From IMG/VR virus record IMGVR_UViG_2740892427_000001: DNA of 64,000 nucleotides; one strand, 5' to 3'. This DNA is from a virus. Its lineage: Duplodnaviria; Heunggongvirae; Uroviricota; Caudoviricetes. The notes below the pieces were generated by a model, which made no database searches, was not told where the DNA came from, and worked only from the letters and a program-made list of their open reading frames with translations. The position numbers and the translations under genes are program-made. Below, in pieces: positions 7,264 to 48,519 of the stretch. Every line of letters begins with the position of its first letter. The stretch's first letter is position 1.

Positions 7264-7857
7264 TTACTGCTTGTTATAAACAAAACCAATATCTTTCTTG
7301 TGAGGCATATCTGCTGCTGAAAAAGCTGCGATCTTCGCGAGTCGATCACATATTTCATTTTCACGATGCCCGGCGTGACCTTTAACCCACTTCCAGCGAA
7401 CATTATGTCGACTTGCGGCCTCATCCAGACGTTTCCACAGATCAACATTCTTTACCGGTTTTTTATCAGAAGTCATCCATCCATTACGTTTCCACCATTT
7501 CATCCACTGTGTCATGCCGTTTTTCAGATACTGGCTATCAGAGTACAAAATAACGTTGCATGGATATTTCAAACGCTCCAGCCCGATAAGTGCGCCCATC
7601 ATCTCCATGCGGTTATTGGTGGTGCTATGAAAACCATCTGAGAACTCGCGTTCCTCACCACGATACTGGAGAACGATACCGTAACCGCCCGGGCCACCCG
7701 GATTTTTAAGGCAAGAGCCATCACTAAAGATTTTCACGGTTTTGAGCTGGGGATTGAACTCTACGACAGGCGTTGTGGGATTGGTGCGGGGAGAATTTTT
7801 GTTTTTGGCTTTTTTGCGAGTTTTTGCTTGCGATCGGGCTGGTGTCTTCGTCGTCAT
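7264..7857 (-). CDS. rnhA: ribonuclease HI with Lys-rich N-terminal extension
   Basis: [16 protein letters not shown]...MEMMGAL...YSDSQYL...[18 protein letters not shown] match RNase H catalytic core; start moved to ATG 7857 with AGGAG 7 nt upstream. Confidence 0.85.
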
Positions 7858-8439
7858 ATAAACTCCTGAATCAAGCGCCGCGCCGATTTTTTCCTCGCGC
7901 GTGCGCACACGCGTGCGTGTTAATAATTATTAAAATAAACAAATTACTTCCCAGAACAGGTTTTTATAAACCTGAACTGAACGAACGAAGTGAGTGAAGT
8001 TCACCTCGAACGAAGTGAGAGGTTGTCTTTTCAGGTAATACTCTCCCAGGGAGGTGAGTATAAAATTCCTCACCAACCTGGTCGTTTCATAACCTGAAAA
8101 GCTATGGTCTAAGTCTACTGCCAGCTTAGACTTGGGAAGTTATGGATGACAGCACCCCAGAACCGAGATCTTCCCACACTTTATGAAGGGGAGTACTGGA
8201 TTCAACCTCTCGAAACACCCCAGACTCGACAATCATAAAGTGACCCTTGTCTCTGCTCACTTTGGTTCCCCCTTCCCCGACACCTATACGGCACCGGTTC
8301 TACGCTGGTAGTGAGCTTTTTTAAACCTGACGCCAGTGACGCTTACCCCCACCCATCAGGTCGAGCCTCCAGTCTACGACTGGAAACTATCATATCTTAG
8401 CACTTACAATTCACTTTATGAATAGTTTGTACTTATCTA

Positions 8440-8694
8440 TCATTGTGATTGATTATTTTCTCGACCATGTAGTTGAACATTCAAGGCAAACACCTCATTG
8501 ATCAACTCACCTAAAAGCTGTTCAACAAGTTCGCGATGCTCTCCAAGATGCAAGCACTTAATTGCCCACTCGTACAAGTTGAAAGCCTGCTCACGATCTT
8601 TCATCATTTCACGAGCCTGGGCCAGAAAATCGCTCTCTACGAGCGCAACGACATTAGTCGGGTATGACATGTTGGTTTCCTTAAAGTGGTTCAT
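8440..8694 (-). CDS. hypothetical protein (84 aa)
   Basis: ORF. Confidence 0.45.
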   Translation of the reverse strand: MNHFKETNMSYPTNVVALVESDFLAQAREMMKDREQAFNLYEWAIKCLHLGEHRELVEQLLGELINEVFALNVQLHGRENNQSQ

Positions 8695-8773
8695 AAAATC
8701 GATTTTAAAGCGTCTGGGAAGGGGTTCTAGTGGATTCTGTAGTGATGTTCAGGTCTGGAGTCTCTGATACAAA

Positions 8774-8834
8774 ACAGCCTGCTTCCGTATATTAATAATT
8801 AATATGTAGTTATTTATATATACAGAAGCAGGCT
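8774..8834 (-). terminator. long stem-loop AGCCTGCTTCCGTATAT-n23-ATATACAGAAGCAGGCT just downstream of the Dam gene
   Basis: 17-bp arms, AT-rich loop, U-rich tract follows on the minus strand. Confidence 0.5.
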
Positions 8835-8855: not shown

Positions 8856-9449
8856 CTAAGCAGCCTTCTTTGATGGTCTTTTTTTCCTGATCACATTCGC
8901 AGGATCATACCCTCCCAGACTTTTCATGACGTCCAAAGGGATCTTGCTTATAGAGTGCCCAGCGTCCTGACAGAATCCTCGAAAAACAACGAGCATACTG
9001 CCACCGGGGTTGATGTTTACTTCTACCTGACCCAAATTGACGTCAGGCTCGACAAACGCTACGCGGCCACCAGACAGAATAATCGTCTCATTCGCATACT
9101 CTGTTGCACGCTCATACCACTTTGTATCGAGGGATTGAGGAATTAGCATCACTGTTGTAACTCCGCGAGCCTGCTCACGTATAGCAGCATCAATCCAGGG
9201 GGAGATTTTGGAGTAGGGTGGATTGAGGAAGGCAATTGTACCTGGCTGTCCCCATTCAGATTTCAAAGCATCACGCTCAATGCCTATGAAATTAGGCAGC
9301 TTTGCGTTGTCCTTGTTGCAGGCAACGTCAACATCAAATGTCACTCCAAGATAACGTTGAATGGCAGAAAACAGCCAATCAGGTGTTCTCCAGAGGTCAC
9401 GAAGAGAGTTGTCGCGCTTTCGCTGTTTGATTTTTTCGGCTGCAATCAT
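8856..9449 (-). CDS. phage-type DNA N6-adenine methyltransferase (Dam-like)
   Basis: LNPPYSKISPWIDAA motif and ~200-aa size typical of small phage Dam enzymes. Confidence 0.75.
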   Translation of the reverse strand: MIAAEKIKQRKRDNSLRDLWRTPDWLFSAIQRYLGVTFDVDVACNKDNAKLPNFIGIERDALKSEWGQPGTIAFLNPPYSKISPWIDAAIREQARGVTTVMLIPQSLDTKWYERATEYANETIILSGGRVAFVEPDVNLGQVEVNINPGGSMLVVFRGFCQDAGHSISKIPLDVMKSLGGYDPANVIRKKRPSKKAA

Positions 9450-16647: not shown

Positions 16648-18963
16648 TCAGATTTTGCAGGCTCCGTCGCACTCATCTTCTGGCTCGACGGCTACAGCTT
16701 GCGTCAGTGGATTCTGCGGTTCGTCGTCATCACGCTTTCCTGCCCCATCTCTGGTGTTGTGGTAGTAAAGCGTTTTAACTCCCATCTTGTAGGCGAGAAG
16801 CAAATCTGACAGTAGCGTCATCATTGGGACTTTATCGCCTTCAAAGCGAGAAGGGTCATAGTTGGTATTGGCTGAAATAGCCTGGTCAAAGAACTTCTGG
16901 ATGATCGCCACCTTTGTCAGATAGCCGCGGTTGTCCGGCATATCCCACAGGTATTCATACTGTTCCTTCAGTTTTTCAAACTCAGGCACGACCATCTTAA
17001 CGATGCCGTCCTTAGAAGATTTCACCGACACCGGGCCACGAGGCGGTTCGATGCCGTTGGTGGAATTAGTGATCTGGCTGGAAGTCTCGCATGGCATTTG
17101 TGCCGTCAGTGTGGAGTTGCGAAGGCCGTATTTTGCAATACGTTCACGCAGTTCTTCCCACGGCATCTTTAACTCAAAGTTGGTTTCGCCACTTTCGTCT
17201 AATGAAGAACGGTAATGGTCGATCGGCAACTGACCAATTGCGTACTTGGTCTGCTCAAACCAGTCACACTCACCTTTTGCTTCAGCAAGTCGGCAGCTGG
17301 CGTCAAGAAGGTAATACTGGATAGCTTCGAACGTTTCATGCACCAGTTTATTGCCAGCGGTATCAGAATAACGAACGCCATTCTTTGCCAGGTAATAAGC
17401 AAAGTTGGTTACACCAATTCCCAGGCTACGACGAGCTTTGGCAGGCACTTCGGCTGCCTCCATCGGATAGTCTTGATAATCCAGTAACGAATCCAGTGCA
17501 GCAACGGCATAGAACGCCACCTCTTTAAGAGACTCCAGTGAACGGATGGCTCCGAGGTTAAAAGCGGATAAAGTGCATAGCGCGATCTCACCGTTCGGGT
17601 CGTCGGTAAATGCCAGTGGACGGGTGGGTAGAGTGATCTCCATGCACAGGTTTGACTGGCGAACAGGTGCAAGAGCAGGAATGAAAGCGCCATGCTCGTT
17701 AATATGATCGACGTTCGCAATATAAATTCGGCCCGTGGACGCTCGTTCCTGCATCAGAGATGAGAACAGCTCAATGGCAGGTACTGACTTCTTGCGAATT
17801 GAATCATCGGCTTCGTATTTATGGTACAGCTTTTCAAACAGATCCTGGTCTGTGAAGAAGGCTTCGTACATATCAGGCACATCATGCGGGCTGAACAGAG
17901 TGATGTTCTCGCTTCTGACGAGTCGACGGTACATTAGACGGTTACTCATGACGCCGTAATCAAGATGGCGAACGCGGTTTTCATCAATACCACGGTTATT
18001 TTTCACCACCAGCAGACTTTCAACCTCAAGATGCCAAATCGGGTAAAACGCTGTTGCTGCGCCACCACGAACACCACCTTGCGAACAAGATTTAACAGCC
18101 GTCTGGAAATGCTTCAGGAATGGAATAACTCCGGTATGGGTGGCTTCACCATTGCGGATCTCGCTGCCCAGCGCACGGATACGGCCAAAACCAATACCAA
18201 TTCCAGCACGACGTGAAACGTAGTCGATAATTGCGGCTGAAGCTGCACTAATCCCTTTCAGACTATCGCCAGACTCAATCAGCACACAACTGGAGAACTG
18301 ACGGGTTGGAGTACGGACGCCGGCCATGATTGGTGTGGGCAGAGACAGTTTGAACGTACTTGTAACGTCATAGAAACCTTTGACCATCTCCATACGTGTT
18401 TTGCCAGCGCAGTCGTCTTCCCAATTCTGGAACAGACACATGCCTACCAGCATATAGATATGTTGCGGCCCCTCATGAATCTCACCAGTAACACGGTTTT
18501 GAACGAGGTATTTGCTTTGCAACTGCACCGTAGCTGCATAGCCAAAAAGATCGTCACGTTTAGGCTTAATGTAATTGCCGAGTTCTTCGATCTCTTCAAA
18601 TGAATAATGTGTCAGCAAATCCTTGTCATAAACGCCCTTGTTAACGTTCTTGACAATGTGTTGGTGGAAGTTCGGATAGTCGTAACGACCGAAGGCATCT
18701 TTGCGGATTTTAAAAATGTTCAGGCGGGCAGCCACCTGCGAGTAATTTGGTGCATCTGGTGAGATCAAATCAGCGGCAGATTTAACCAAAGCCTCATGCA
18801 ACTGGCTGGTGGTAATCCCATCAAAAATGCTGGCCGCAGCTCCCATTGCTACAGCGGATGCGCTTACACCACGAATGCCTTCTACGCCATACATTACGAC
18901 GCGGTTGTATTTTTCTTCGGATAACGGCTCTGTTTGGCCGTTACGTTTTACGATGCTTATCAT
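16648..18963 (-). CDS. nrdA: ribonucleotide reductase class Ia alpha subunit
   Basis: 771 aa; LVQNRVTGEI, PTRQFSSCVLIE, SNLCMEI, C-terminal ...CDGACKI. Confidence 0.95.
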   Translation of the reverse strand: MISIVKRNGQTEPLSEEKYNRVVMYGVEGIRGVSASAVAMGAAASIFDGITTSQLHEALVKSAADLISPDAPNYSQVAARLNIFKIRKDAFGRYDYPNFHQHIVKNVNKGVYDKDLLTHYSFEEIEELGNYIKPKRDDLFGYAATVQLQSKYLVQNRVTGEIHEGPQHIYMLVGMCLFQNWEDDCAGKTRMEMVKGFYDVTSTFKLSLPTPIMAGVRTPTRQFSSCVLIESGDSLKGISAASAAIIDYVSRRAGIGIGFGRIRALGSEIRNGEATHTGVIPFLKHFQTAVKSCSQGGVRGGAATAFYPIWHLEVESLLVVKNNRGIDENRVRHLDYGVMSNRLMYRRLVRSENITLFSPHDVPDMYEAFFTDQDLFEKLYHKYEADDSIRKKSVPAIELFSSLMQERASTGRIYIANVDHINEHGAFIPALAPVRQSNLCMEITLPTRPLAFTDDPNGEIALCTLSAFNLGAIRSLESLKEVAFYAVAALDSLLDYQDYPMEAAEVPAKARRSLGIGVTNFAYYLAKNGVRYSDTAGNKLVHETFEAIQYYLLDASCRLAEAKGECDWFEQTKYAIGQLPIDHYRSSLDESGETNFELKMPWEELRERIAKYGLRNSTLTAQMPCETSSQITNSTNGIEPPRGPVSVKSSKDGIVKMVVPEFEKLKEQYEYLWDMPDNRGYLTKVAIIQKFFDQAISANTNYDPSRFEGDKVPMMTLLSDLLLAYKMGVKTLYYHNTRDGAGKRDDDEPQNPLTQAVAVEPEDECDGACKI

Positions 18964-18980
18964 GTATCACCAAATAAAGA

Positions 18981-19002
18981 GGGCCACTATATTTAGTGGC
19001 CC
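18981..19002. other. stem-loop GGGCCACTatatttAGTGGCCC in the nrdA 5' region
   Basis: 8-bp perfect stem. Confidence 0.45.
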
Positions 19003-19036
19003 ATGTTAATAGATAAGCACTTACCTATCAATGAAA

Positions 19037-36964: not shown

Positions 36965-37148
36965 AGCATCGTTGGTTTGCAAGACAGACCTTATGTAAGC
37001 AGTTTTAGTAAAGCAGTCTCAGTTCAGTGTTATCTTCTGATTTCCCTTCTTCGTGAGTCTCCTCCTTAAGTGCCTAAGTAAGTCCCAATCTATACAGATC
37101 AAATTCTCGCCGCACTATGTGGCTCACAAAATTAAGAAGGTAATATCT

Positions 37149-37364
37149 ATGTCTAATAAAATGACTGGTTTAGTAAAATGGTTTAACTCTGATAAAGGCT
37201 TTGGCTTTATTTCTCCTGCTGATGGCAGTAAAGATGTTTTTGTACATTTTTCGGCAATTCAGAGTAATAATTTCCGCACTTTGGAAGAAGGCCAGCAGGT
37301 CGAATTCTCTATCGAGAATGGTGCTAAAGGCCCAGCAGCAGCAAATGTCGTTGCTCTAAGCTGA
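37149..37364 (+). CDS. cspA: cold-shock protein, CspA family
   Basis: [23 protein letters not shown]...[10 protein letters not shown]...[20 protein letters not shown]: RNP1/RNP2 cold-shock-domain motifs; start set to internal ATG 37149. Confidence 0.9.
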
Positions 37365-37639
37365 TTCAACGCTGATGATCCTCATTTCTACAATAACGAA
37401 GACGGTGTAAGCCTGAGTGGATAGATTTGTAGGATTGTACAAGTTGAATAAATTAGCATGGTAAGGCCATGCTAATTAAATCGACACAACGGCCAGTTTA
37501 TTCCATAAAAGTGAATTGCCCATTGTGGCGAAATGCGGGGTTGCCGCATGAATAGTCAAAGGCAGAAGCTAACTGCCGGCATGGCAAAACAAAGTGCGTA
37601 AGAGGAGTGACTTCCTCAACAAGCGCCATAATTCTTTAT

Positions 37640-47865: not shown

Positions 47866-47952
47866 TGGCGGAGAGTAATGGAATCGAACCATCATCGCTT
47901 GCGCAATGGGACGGTTTTCAAGACCGCTTGAGCACCATGCTCCCTACTCTCC
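47866..47952 (-). tRNA. tRNA-Ser (anticodon UGA), class II with long variable arm, encoded CCA
   Basis: manual fold: acceptor GGAGAGT/ACTCTCC, anticodon loop CUUGAAA, T-loop GGTTCGATTCC. Confidence 0.7.
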
Positions 47953-48050
47953 AGCTATTGTGATGGTCGGTGCTGAACTCCGACACAGGGTTGTAGCAAG
48001 CCCCGCAAAGCGCGCACTACTGTAGTTGCGGCACATCAGCCTGTGCATTC

Positions 48051-48133
48051 ATCACAACGGTAAGATCACTACCTTTCGACCAGTCATTGTGCACATGAAC
48101 GACGATTAACCGTAATGATCTTATCGTTGTGTT
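48051..48133 (-). other. imperfect long stem-loop in tRNA spacer
   Basis: arms atcacaacggtaagatcact / aatgatcttatcgttgtg. Confidence 0.35.
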
Positions 48134-48180
48134 GTGAAGCCAGATGCTTATCTTCTGGTTGCTTCAAAGAGCTGCACTTC

Positions 48181-48271
48181 CTCACAACGGTAAGAGCACT
48201 GGTCTGACTCTATCGATTTACGGGCTTGTGGGTCAGTATCGCCGATTCGCCCAATGCTCTTACCTGTTGTG
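48181..48271 (-). other. imperfect long stem-loop immediately 3' of tRNA-Thr
   Basis: arms ctcacaacggtaagagcactgg / ccaatgctcttacctgttgtg. Confidence 0.4.
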
Positions 48272-48272
48272 T

Positions 48273-48348
48273 TGGTGCCGGTTAACGGGATCGAACCGCT
48301 GACATCCTGCTTACAAGGCAGACGCTCTACCAACTGAGCTAAACCGGC
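48273..48348 (-). tRNA. tRNA-Thr (anticodon UGU), encoded CCA
   Basis: GCCGGTTTAGCTCAGTTGGTAGAGC...CUUGUAA...GGTTCGATCCCGTTAACCGGCACCA. Confidence 0.8.
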
Positions 48349-48352
48349 AATT

Positions 48353-48439
48353 TGGTGGGGAGTGATGGAGTCGAACCACCCGAGTCGCAATGACAGTAGA
48401 TTTACAGTCTACCCCGCTGCCCCTACGGACTAACTCCCC
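48353..48439 (-). tRNA. tRNA-Tyr (anticodon GUA), long variable arm, encoded CCA
   Basis: anticodon arm GTAGACTGTAAATCTAC, T-loop GGTTCGACTCC, acceptor GGGGAGT/ACTCCCC. Confidence 0.8.
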
Positions 48440-48444
48440 TAAAT

Positions 48445-48519
48445 TGGCGATGGTGGGTGGATTCGAACCACCGACCAGTTGGTTAACAGCCAACTGCTCT
48501 ACCGCTGAGCTACACCATC
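48445..48519 (-). tRNA. tRNA-Asn (anticodon GUU), encoded CCA
   Basis: GATGGTGTAGCTCAGCGGTAGAGC...GTTGGCTGTTAACCAAC...GGTTCGAATCCACC. Confidence 0.8.

Follow-up and report, generated by a model that had tools for sequence, protein, structure and literature searches.

The 64,000-nucleotide (nt) stretch of DNA studied here (IMG/VR virus record IMGVR_UViG_2740892427_000001; hereafter the window) almost certainly carries a gene for a large structured RNA, located on the minus strand between orf84, a gene of 84 amino acids (aa), and rnhA, which encodes RNase HI, and read in the same sense as these neighbors. An earlier note on this DNA had offered three readings of the gap between the two genes, namely, a structured noncoding RNA, a long leader of rnhA, and a cis-acting DNA site. 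The first of these is now supported by sequence conservation, covariation, strand-specific G-U pairs, a conserved promoter, and published transcriptome sequencing (RNA-seq). The gene has not previously been described as an RNA. The 1 kb around the locus shares 98% identity with three Escherichia phage-plasmids (CMS-2020a, PhiR41_1, and Cyrano) and 82% with Salmonella phage SSU5, and we accordingly assign the window to an SSU5-like phage-plasmid of E. coli.

A noncoding block more conserved than its flanking genes

We gathered 84 loci via the RNase HI and orf84 proteins and aligned 62 distinct sequences (the window and 61 relatives), in which identity to the window was measured per segment. Positions 7861 to 8366 kept 84 to 93% identity in divergent relatives, the same relatives in which DNA identity fell to 70 to 78% over orf84, 69 to 77% over rnhA, and ∼50% over positions 8367 to 8439. 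Examined by alignment column, the near-invariant block extends on the minus strand from 8366 to 7945, which corresponds to ∼420 nt; the 84 to 93% identity of this core was seen in 60 non-identical relatives. Because this noncoding stretch evolves much more slowly than both flanking protein genes, we consider it to be under selection of its own. The bounds proposed earlier (7910 to 8440) needed refining: the conserved core spans 7945 to 8366, positions 8367 to 8439 contain the promoter and a variable 5' hairpin, and positions 7861 to 7944 comprise an AT-rich spacer and a GC-rich element ahead of the ribosome-binding site of rnhA.

The features listed for the region in the earlier note were all recovered, exactly at or a few bases off their coordinates. 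The direct repeat is an exact 13-mer, CGAACGAAGTGAG, at 7982 to 7994 and 8007 to 8019, the GTCTAAG/CTTAGAC and CCAGTC/GACTGG hairpins occupy 8107 to 8131 and 8364 to 8388, respectively, and GGTGAG/CTCACC belongs to the inside arms (8046 to 8058 and 8069 to 8081) of a hairpin nested within 8027 to 8039 and 8089 to 8101. That no open reading frame (ORF) of 60 aa or more exists holds for ORFs lying wholly within 7910 to 8440, the longest having 48, 44, and 42 aa, but two others intrude from the left edge (a 74-aa TTG ORF at 7773 to 7997 on the plus strand and an alternative GTG start of rnhA at 7908).

The element was found in 687 of the 72,556 plasmids in PLSDB, or ∼1% (by genus, Klebsiella, 310; Escherichia, 195; Enterobacter, 88; Salmonella, 49; Citrobacter, 24; Cronobacter, 10). 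Twelve phage records and 232 of 5,426 complete E. coli genomes contain it as well, and a replicon nearly always has a single copy. Nothing is annotated at the locus in RefSeq. In phage SSU5, the rnhA coding sequence SSU5_090 (L001, 2562 to 3326) is annotated with an upstream extension of ∼170 nt that takes in the final 74 nt of the RNA, and we regard its N terminus and CYRAN_81 of Cyrano (L085, 20428 to 20562) as probable mis-annotations of the RNA as protein in reference phages. Our literature searches found no paper that prints any of six 18- to 19-mers (three core sequences and their reverse complements) and nothing relevant on SSU5 or pHCM2 in connection with non-coding RNA.

The minus strand folds into a covarying structure

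The minus strand has a minimum free energy of −191 kcal/mol (z = −6.05), and none of 100 shuffled sequences folded as well; the corresponding values for the plus strand are −159 kcal/mol and z = −4.95. The core folds into more than 10 helices, which are listed below together with a short ORF that it contains.

7945 to 8366, minus strand: conserved structured core of the RNA, defined by conservation and covariation
8324 to 8362, minus strand: helix H2, well supported
8255 to 8316, minus strand: helices H3 to H5, a domain closed by H3, well supported
8177 to 8242, minus strand: helices H8 to H10, well supported
8133 to 8176, minus strand: helices H11/H12, well supported
8107 to 8131, minus strand: helix H13, well supported
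8027 to 8101, minus strand: helices H14/H15, well supported
7996 to 8007, minus strand: hairpin GAGG-UGAA-CUUC of the 3' domain
3' domain, minus strand: two copies of CUCACUUCGUUCG, part of the conserved core
7952 to 7979, minus strand: terminal hairpin of the 3' domain
7945 to 7957, minus strand: invariant UUCUGGGAAGUAA, the last conserved stretch of the core
8126 to 8260, minus strand: 44-aa GTG ORF (CYRAN_81 in Cyrano), whose frame is not conserved; the RNA-seq signal assigned to it reflects the RNA

The RNA occurs in three clades, termed main, pCP102, and L176. The pCP102 clade was found via a divergent member and includes pCP102 (Enterobacter sp.) and a plasmid of Cronobacter sp. JZ38, with ∼68% identity to the window; four viral contigs also belong to it. 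L176, from a public sequencing run, was reached via its orf84 homologue (nhmmer, E = 3e-18) and keeps the architecture, although H2, H12, H13, and the long H14/H15 hairpin consist of new sequences there. The repeats of the core differ in spacing and sequence from clade to clade. The near-invariant loops and junctions include UGGGUGGNGG, a GGAA tetraloop, the CUGGCA loop of H13, ACAACCUCUCACUNCGUUCGAGG, and UUCUGGGAAG.

We analyzed covariation with RNAalifold in 49 distinct copies of the main clade and obtained 128 pairs, with 99.6% of the cells paired. Compensatory double changes affected 8 pairs and 66 cells, compared to 17.5 ± 3.2 cells in shuffles (0/500), and slid controls gave at most 3 pairs. 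One-sided changes went nearly all through G-U (728 G-U versus 3 A-C cells), and in the fully compensated pairs, every intermediate was a G-U on the minus strand, which would be a C-A mismatch on the other strand. The consensus fold likewise reached −143 kcal/mol on the minus strand (the gene sense) versus −115 kcal/mol in antisense. When the main and pCP102 clades were combined (23 sequences), 25 pairs were compensatory; shuffles gave 6.6 ± 2.0 (0/500), and slid controls never exceeded 6. A comparison of just the window with pCP102 shows 22 pairs that are altered on both sides and still pair, and another 21 one-sided changes keep pairing.

The pCP102 clade also served to prune the first RNAalifold model, since it gave no support to the long-range helices H6/H7 or to helix H16. 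A GAGG-NNAA-CYUC hairpin (7996 to 8007) fits this clade better; the CUCACUUCGUUCG repeats flank a GAGG hairpin, but the pairing is not kept in pCP102. A pseudoknot between G-rich and C-rich segments (GAAGGGG with CCCCUUC) was discarded as well, its pairing being lost in pCP102 when the alignment was inspected by eye.

Conservation and covariation in related genomes had been suggested as checks by the earlier note, as had a covariance-model scan, which placed no Rfam family in the region. At gathering thresholds, the scan of the window returned nothing in 7700 to 8800, and relaxed scans of the window copy and three divergent homologues yielded only scattered microRNA and small nucleolar RNA noise (E > 0.07). 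The Rfam 15 scans covered the C4 antisense RNA, GOLLD, ROOL, plasmid copy-control RNAs, and riboswitches. No tRNA or transfer-messenger RNA was detected in the region with ARAGORN and tRNA models, the only tRNAs of the window being at 47.8 to 48.5 kb.

The RNA is abundant in lysogens of Cyrano

The RNA core corresponds to positions 78552 to 78973 of Cyrano, within which CYRAN_81 (78657 to 78791) falls. In strand-resolved RNA-seq of Cyrano lysogens, CYRAN_81 reached 113/121 fragments per kilobase per million (FPKM), versus 9.5 for CYRAN_80 (orf84) and 8.4 for CYRAN_82 (rnhA) (PMC9928086, S1 Table). Expressed as log2(fpkm+5), its level was 6.8/6.9 in stationary phase in lysogeny broth (LB), 9.3/9.0 and 6.9/6.9 after 1 h and 6 h in Dulbecco's modified Eagle medium (DMEM), and 9.0/8.2 and 10.35/10.3 after 1 h and 6 h in macrophages, with CYRAN_80 and CYRAN_82 ranging from 2.6 to 5.8 across conditions (PMC9928086). 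The authors of that study listed CYRAN_81 as a protein "moron" (PMC9928086).

By these data, the RNA level in lysogens is 12- to 40-fold that of both flanking genes and 12-fold the local background. The RNA is thus expressed in the carrier state, and its level rises inside macrophages. As its signal is far above that of both neighbors, we conclude that it is made in the plasmid state as a separate unit, and as rnhA is low in all five conditions, that transcription does not continue into rnhA. According to the earlier note, its proposal would fall if no transcript or DNA ends mapped to the region and the region was unconserved in relatives; a transcript is present in the RNA-seq data, and conservation exceeds that of the neighbors.

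A probable promoter and a 5' hairpin of variable sequence

Right after the orf84 stop codon, the sequence is scrambled except for a few positions that the three clades share, and these outline a probable sigma-70 promoter with a start at ∼8387. The elements of this region are as follows.

8417 to 8422, minus strand: −35 hexamer TTCATA, proposed by comparison, with TT kept in all clades
8394 to 8402, minus strand: extended −10 TGcTAAGAT (hexamer 8399 to 8394), 17 nt after the −35, TG-n-TAnnAT in every clade
8364 to 8388, minus strand: probable transcription start (∼8386 to 8388) and 5' hairpin P1, a hairpin kept in 17 sequence variants covering all clades
8424 to 8437, minus strand: degenerate, operator-like palindrome copy, which in most relatives is a perfect 14-mer, GGTAAGTACTTACC, ending 1 nt before the −35

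The sequence of the 17-nt spacer between the −35 and the −10 is not conserved. The promoter scores 8/12, under the 9/12 threshold of a simple promoter scan, and was thus missed by the scanner. P1 begins ∼7 bases after the −10, and its variants range from −4 to −17 kcal/mol with sequences that are unrelated between lineages, so that it has the look that would be expected of a protective 5' stem-loop on a primary transcript.

The palindrome is positioned at about −50 to −37 relative to the RNA start, a geometry that matches that of lambda CI activating PRM, although this is a resemblance only. The pCP102 locus lacks the GGTAAGTACTTACC palindrome and has a different inverted repeat upstream of the −35. 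A copy of a dispersed palindrome had been noted at 8421 to 8445; the motif is indeed present and enriched in the window, but this copy is degenerate and reads GATAAGTACAAAC at 8425 to 8437 on the minus strand.

Elsewhere in the window, the dispersed palindrome (about ATAGGTAAGTACTTACCTAT) is a recurrent feature, with sites at 2282, 7251, 8424, 9464, 14296, 19012, 30469, 35255, 45312, 49289, 52803, and 56245 and 3 strict matches versus 0.01 expected. It is usually found directly after a −10-like hexamer and 15 to 60 nt upstream of minus-strand start codons, and it looks like a putative operator through which a global repressor would control early promoters. At 18950 to 19030 (minus strand), a short GC hairpin with a U-run comes immediately after the palindrome, giving the order promoter, operator, terminator, and the same layout is seen in unrelated phage contigs (L065/L066, ∼2830 to 2900) that have a related RNase HI and lack the large RNA. 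The arrangement at 18950 to 19030 may be a tiny leader or attenuator requiring antitermination.

Two candidate 3' ends

Conservation stops at UUCUGGGAAGUAA (7957 to 7945), and in every clade a U-rich stretch of variable sequence comes next. The features beyond the core are as follows.

7921 to 7944, minus strand: AT/U-rich variable stretch, first candidate 3' end (∼7930 to 7940), perhaps acting as a weak terminator tail
7896 to 7920, no strand assigned: alternating purine-pyrimidine (CG/CA) tract of 25 nt, the longest such run in the window
7875 to 7906, minus strand: GC-rich hairpin with an A-run loop in the main clade, second candidate 3' end (∼7873), resembling a terminator whose U tract is weak

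With one or the other candidate, the length of the RNA would fall between 450 and 515 nt. In the U-rich stretch of pCP102, a weak terminator was called by the scanner, and in L176 a closing helix is followed by U6. The GC hairpin at 7875 to 7906 is followed by UUGAUU and the Shine-Dalgarno sequence of rnhA. About 40 nt beyond the end of conservation, the alternating tract ends in the motif CGCGCGAGG and an A-run (7887 to 7901), which the GC hairpin also contains. This motif and A-run are common to all three clades, and nearly identical E. coli elements have A-runs of 5 to 9. The tract at 7896 to 7920 had been described as a GC-rich near-palindrome; it is GC-rich, but it is in fact the alternating run listed above, a potential Z-DNA former judging from its sequence, which measures 15 to 29 nt in relatives and 6 nt in the pCP102 clade.

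The slot downstream of orf84 holds at least two types of RNA

Upstream of the RNA, the methyltransferase gene and orf84 are constant. Downstream, the main clade and L176 have rnhA, whereas the pCP102 clade has a gene with a promoter-like site of its own that encodes a 103-aa Tad2-like protein (anti-Thoeris, PF11195, E = 2.5e-7; L089, 3527 to 3838, and L090). The RNA is therefore more than a mere leader of rnhA, and this exchange points to an interchangeable accessory or anti-defense slot behind the RNA.

We found orf84 homologues in 728 plasmids. Thirty Klebsiella plasmids without the RNA described above (type 1) have a different noncoding element of ∼480 nt in the same slot, which we termed type 2.

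L169, 3238 to 3740, plus strand: RNA type 2 of the K. pneumoniae plasmid OW968253.1; also in L171 to L175, L178, and L179

Type 2 folds with z = −5.9, shows 14 compensatory pairs among 6 sequences versus 7.2 ± 1.8 in shuffles (0/500), and has a sense preference (−149 versus −120 kcal/mol). Its 5' side bears a hairpin with a U-run, its 3' end is a clean terminator ∼20 nt before rnhA, and nhmmer detected no homology between the two types. A divergent type-2 relative has two RNase H genes downstream, and in two type-2 lineages the next gene is on the reverse strand and the RNA is kept. As orf84 is followed by either a type 1 or a type 2 RNA, the slot holds one of at least two structured RNAs, with RNase H as the usual but dispensable downstream partner.

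Genetic context

The gene order at the locus, all on the minus strand, is exonuclease, a 269-aa ORF, a Dam-like methyltransferase (8856 to 9449), orf84, the gap, rnhA, and small accessory genes, and the locus sits within a replication and nucleotide-metabolism module. The two genes bordering the gap are the following.

8440 to 8694, minus strand: orf84 (phrog_5343), three helices, the constant upstream neighbor of the RNA slot in nearly all lineages examined
7264 to 7860, minus strand: rnhA, RNase HI (Pfam PF00075), the usual but non-obligatory gene downstream of the RNA

The homologues of orf84 have 76 aa, counted from the second Met. The protein matches no Pfam family, and its PHROG (phrog_5343) has no assigned function; its AlphaFold model (predicted local distance difference test score, 79) is a three-helix protein for which no significant fold match was found in PDB. 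RNase HI has a Lys/Arg-rich N-terminal extension of ∼40 residues (window 7741 to 7860, minus strand) outside its Pfam RNase_H match (residues 41 to 179 of 198). The RepA ORF (26244 to 27299) is ∼18 kb from the locus in the window and ∼17 kb from it in Cyrano, and the RepA replicon of the element is typed as IncFIB or rep_cluster. In SSU5, an antirepressor gene is located four genes downstream of the RNA.

Farther away, the window carries a cold-shock protein gene with its RNA thermosensor, seen as a full-length Rfam match to the cspA thermoregulator 5' untranslated region at 36971 to 37389 (plus strand; 187.6 bits, E = 7e-50), and a cluster of four tRNAs at 47866 to 48519 (minus strand; Ser-TGA, Thr-TGT, Tyr-GTA, and Asn-GTT).

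Possible functions of the RNA

We tentatively favor the view that this is a free-standing RNA expressed in lysogeny, which acts mainly in trans through its fold as the actual product and which has the second effect of stopping transcription ahead of the early genes. RNA polymerase with sigma-70 would start at ∼8387, using the −35 TTCATA, the 17-nt spacer, and the extended −10 TGcTAAGAT, and the transcript would open with the protective 5' hairpin, after which come the ∼420 nt of the multi-helix fold that the three clades retain. The RNA accumulates in the plasmid-prophage state as a separate transcription unit, and the transcript would end either in the U-rich stretch after UUCUGGGAAGUAA (∼7930 to 7940) or at the GC hairpin at ∼7873. 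The folded RNA would then be an "RNA moron" acting on a partner via its near-invariant loops and junctions, whose very high conservation argues for a specific partner, and as a by-product, transcription would be closed off before the downstream early or anti-defense genes.

Several observations weigh against this proposal. We identified no function, partner, or target, and no antisense complementarity of 13 nt or more to the RNA exists elsewhere in the window; 12-mer complementarities in the window occur at chance level, and short seeds are beyond the reach of this search. The RNA-seq data come from Cyrano, a 98%-identical relative, as per-gene counts and not as mapped ends. RNase H follows the slot in 4 of 5 lineages and with two unrelated RNA types, which hints at a functional link. 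In the main clade, there is no canonical intrinsic terminator after the core and no convincing sigma-70 promoter between the RNA and rnhA. As a consequence of the latter, rnhA may need read-through, which would favor a leader or attenuator role.

Such a role is possible but on balance doubtful. The RNA would be a cis-acting leader or attenuator, either riboswitch-like or of the "RNA immunity" type represented by P4 CI, N15 CA, and P1 c4. It would be made constitutively in the lysogen, its fold would stop polymerase before rnhA (with the antirepressor later, in SSU5) or before the Tad2-like gene (in pCP102) until some signal or phage factor let it read through, and the RNA might also act in trans on a superinfecting relative. 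The phage-plasmids P1, N15, and P4 use leader-derived RNAs as regulators of immunity or attenuation. The RNA has the same orientation as the next gene and is directly upstream of its ribosome-binding site, with the GC hairpin and a short U stretch ending 4 to 8 nt before the Shine-Dalgarno sequence. However, the type-1 terminator is weak or atypical, and no conserved terminator/antiterminator alternative was found; it is the type-2 RNA in the same slot that ends in a textbook terminator. Abundance of the RNA while the downstream genes are silent is the pattern of an OFF state, and the antirepressor of SSU5 would be a fitting downstream gene, but none of the five RNA-seq conditions shows read-through, rnhA remaining at background throughout. 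The presence of different RNA types in one slot resembles the variation of immunity regions, yet there is no match to the C4 family and there are no complementary target sites. Moreover, the downstream gene differs by clade and has its own promoter-like site in pCP102, two type-2 lineages keep the RNA though the next gene is on the opposite strand, and ∼440 nt of near-invariant sequence is far above the usual size of a leader. The rnhA leader of the earlier note could still be a secondary role of the RNA.

A further reading, which we consider unlikely, places the RNA beside OLE, GOLLD, and ROOL as a new class of large, complex-folded RNA of Enterobacteriaceae phage-plasmids that itself performs a biochemical or sensing task. 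It could be, for example, a riboswitch-like sensor gating anti-defense payloads (RNase HI and the Tad2-like protein) or an RNA working with RNase H on R-loops. If so, the slot between orf84 and RNase H would be a hot spot that recruited at least two unrelated structured RNAs for that task.

It is improbable that the RNA is the primer or R-loop RNA of a replication origin, along the lines of ColE1 RNA II, the T4 and T7 origins, or RNA-based mycobacteriophage prophage origins. The transcript would then hybridize to the AT-rich and (CG/CA)n region downstream, and cutting by RNase HI would let it prime DNA synthesis. RNase H is the usual downstream neighbor of two unrelated RNA types, but the pCP102 clade and two type-2 lineages have no phage RNase H. 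The locus is in a replication and nucleotide-metabolism module. Behind the core come an AT-rich stretch, an unusual tract of alternating purines and pyrimidines, and an A-run. The RNA is made in the plasmid state, and RNA-based origins have a precedent in extrachromosomal prophages (PMC7157519). Against this, a RepA replicon is present ∼18 kb away, promoter scans and alignments revealed no conserved plus-strand (antisense, RNA I-like) promoter inside the core, and the many conserved loops and junctions exceed the needs of a primer. The RNA strand is G-rich, with a GC skew down to −0.35 on the plus strand; as evidence for an origin, GC skew was set aside as uninformative, being dominated by the direction of transcription.

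A DNA-level element, be it clustered protein-binding sites, a packaging signal, or a lytic origin recognized as a duplex or cruciform, is very improbable. The direct repeats, the operator-like palindrome, and the potential Z-DNA tract would suit it, but pairing is kept for one strand only, as the excess of G-U over A-C cells demonstrates, which is not what a duplex site or cruciform would leave; in addition, the repeats change in spacing and sequence between clades, and a transcript is observed. The lytic origin or packaging signal envisaged by the earlier note thus finds no support, the constraint being on RNA pairing of the minus strand. That the locus is a gene for a small protein, the 44-aa CYRAN_81 or another short ORF, is hardly credible despite the annotation of Cyrano and its listing as a protein moron, since the frames are not conserved (ORF44 is intact in 13/23 representatives, frameshifted in four lineages, and without a start codon in the pCP102 clade; ORF42 is intact in 2/23 and ORF35 in 1/23), the GTG start has no evident ribosome-binding site, and all codon positions are equally conserved. 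The DNA-site, protein-coding, and chance readings together account for a very small part of the probability.

Comparison with known systems

The RNA shares with P1/P7 c4, P4 CI, and N15 CA (Rfam C4) its carriage by a phage-plasmid or plasmid-prophage, its transcription in the lysogen from a constitutive promoter, and its location at the head of a silent early or antirepressor operon, as seen here from the Cyrano RNA-seq data and the gene order. The C4-type RNAs are ∼70 to 90 nt long and act through short complementary sites, whereas the RNA reported here has ∼450 nt and more than 10 helices, no Rfam match, and no detectable target. ColE1 RNA II and the RNA-based prophage origins of cluster A mycobacteriophages (PMC7157519) are likewise structured plasmid-state transcripts of several hundred nt with an AT-rich region downstream. 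RNase H, the usual neighbor here, is involved in the ColE1 case, but here RepA is encoded elsewhere, and there is neither an RNA I-type antisense promoter nor homology. Since every Rfam model fails, no RNA I-type promoter is found, and RepA is present, we propose that the RNA constitutes a new family. Like prophage morons, it has its own promoter, is expressed in lysogens above silent neighbors (PMC9928086), and occupies a slot with varying cargo, but the cargo is a large structured RNA and not a protein gene or a small regulatory RNA.

GOLLD, ROOL, OLE, and raiA resemble our RNA in exceeding 400 nt, in the very good conservation of both sequence and fold, in their link to phages or mobile elements, and in a function that cannot be deduced from context. 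The RNA matches none of them in the Rfam scans, and it differs in its occurrence in Enterobacteriaceae phage-plasmids, in its location away from tRNAs, and in its expression in lysogeny. Bacterial RNAs of more than 400 nt with such structural conservation are rare, and those known have mostly proved complex in function. The carriers of this one, the SSU5-like phage-plasmids, occur commonly among clinical E. coli, Klebsiella, Enterobacter, and Salmonella. With the promoter, the fold, and the set of clades in hand, roles in maintenance, immunity, induction, or anti-defense are directly testable, and the alignments can seed two candidate new RNA families, type 1 and type 2. Overall, the expression pattern of the RNA is most like that of a prophage moron or a phage-plasmid leader RNA, and its size and conservation are most like those of the orphan large RNAs GOLLD, ROOL, and OLE.

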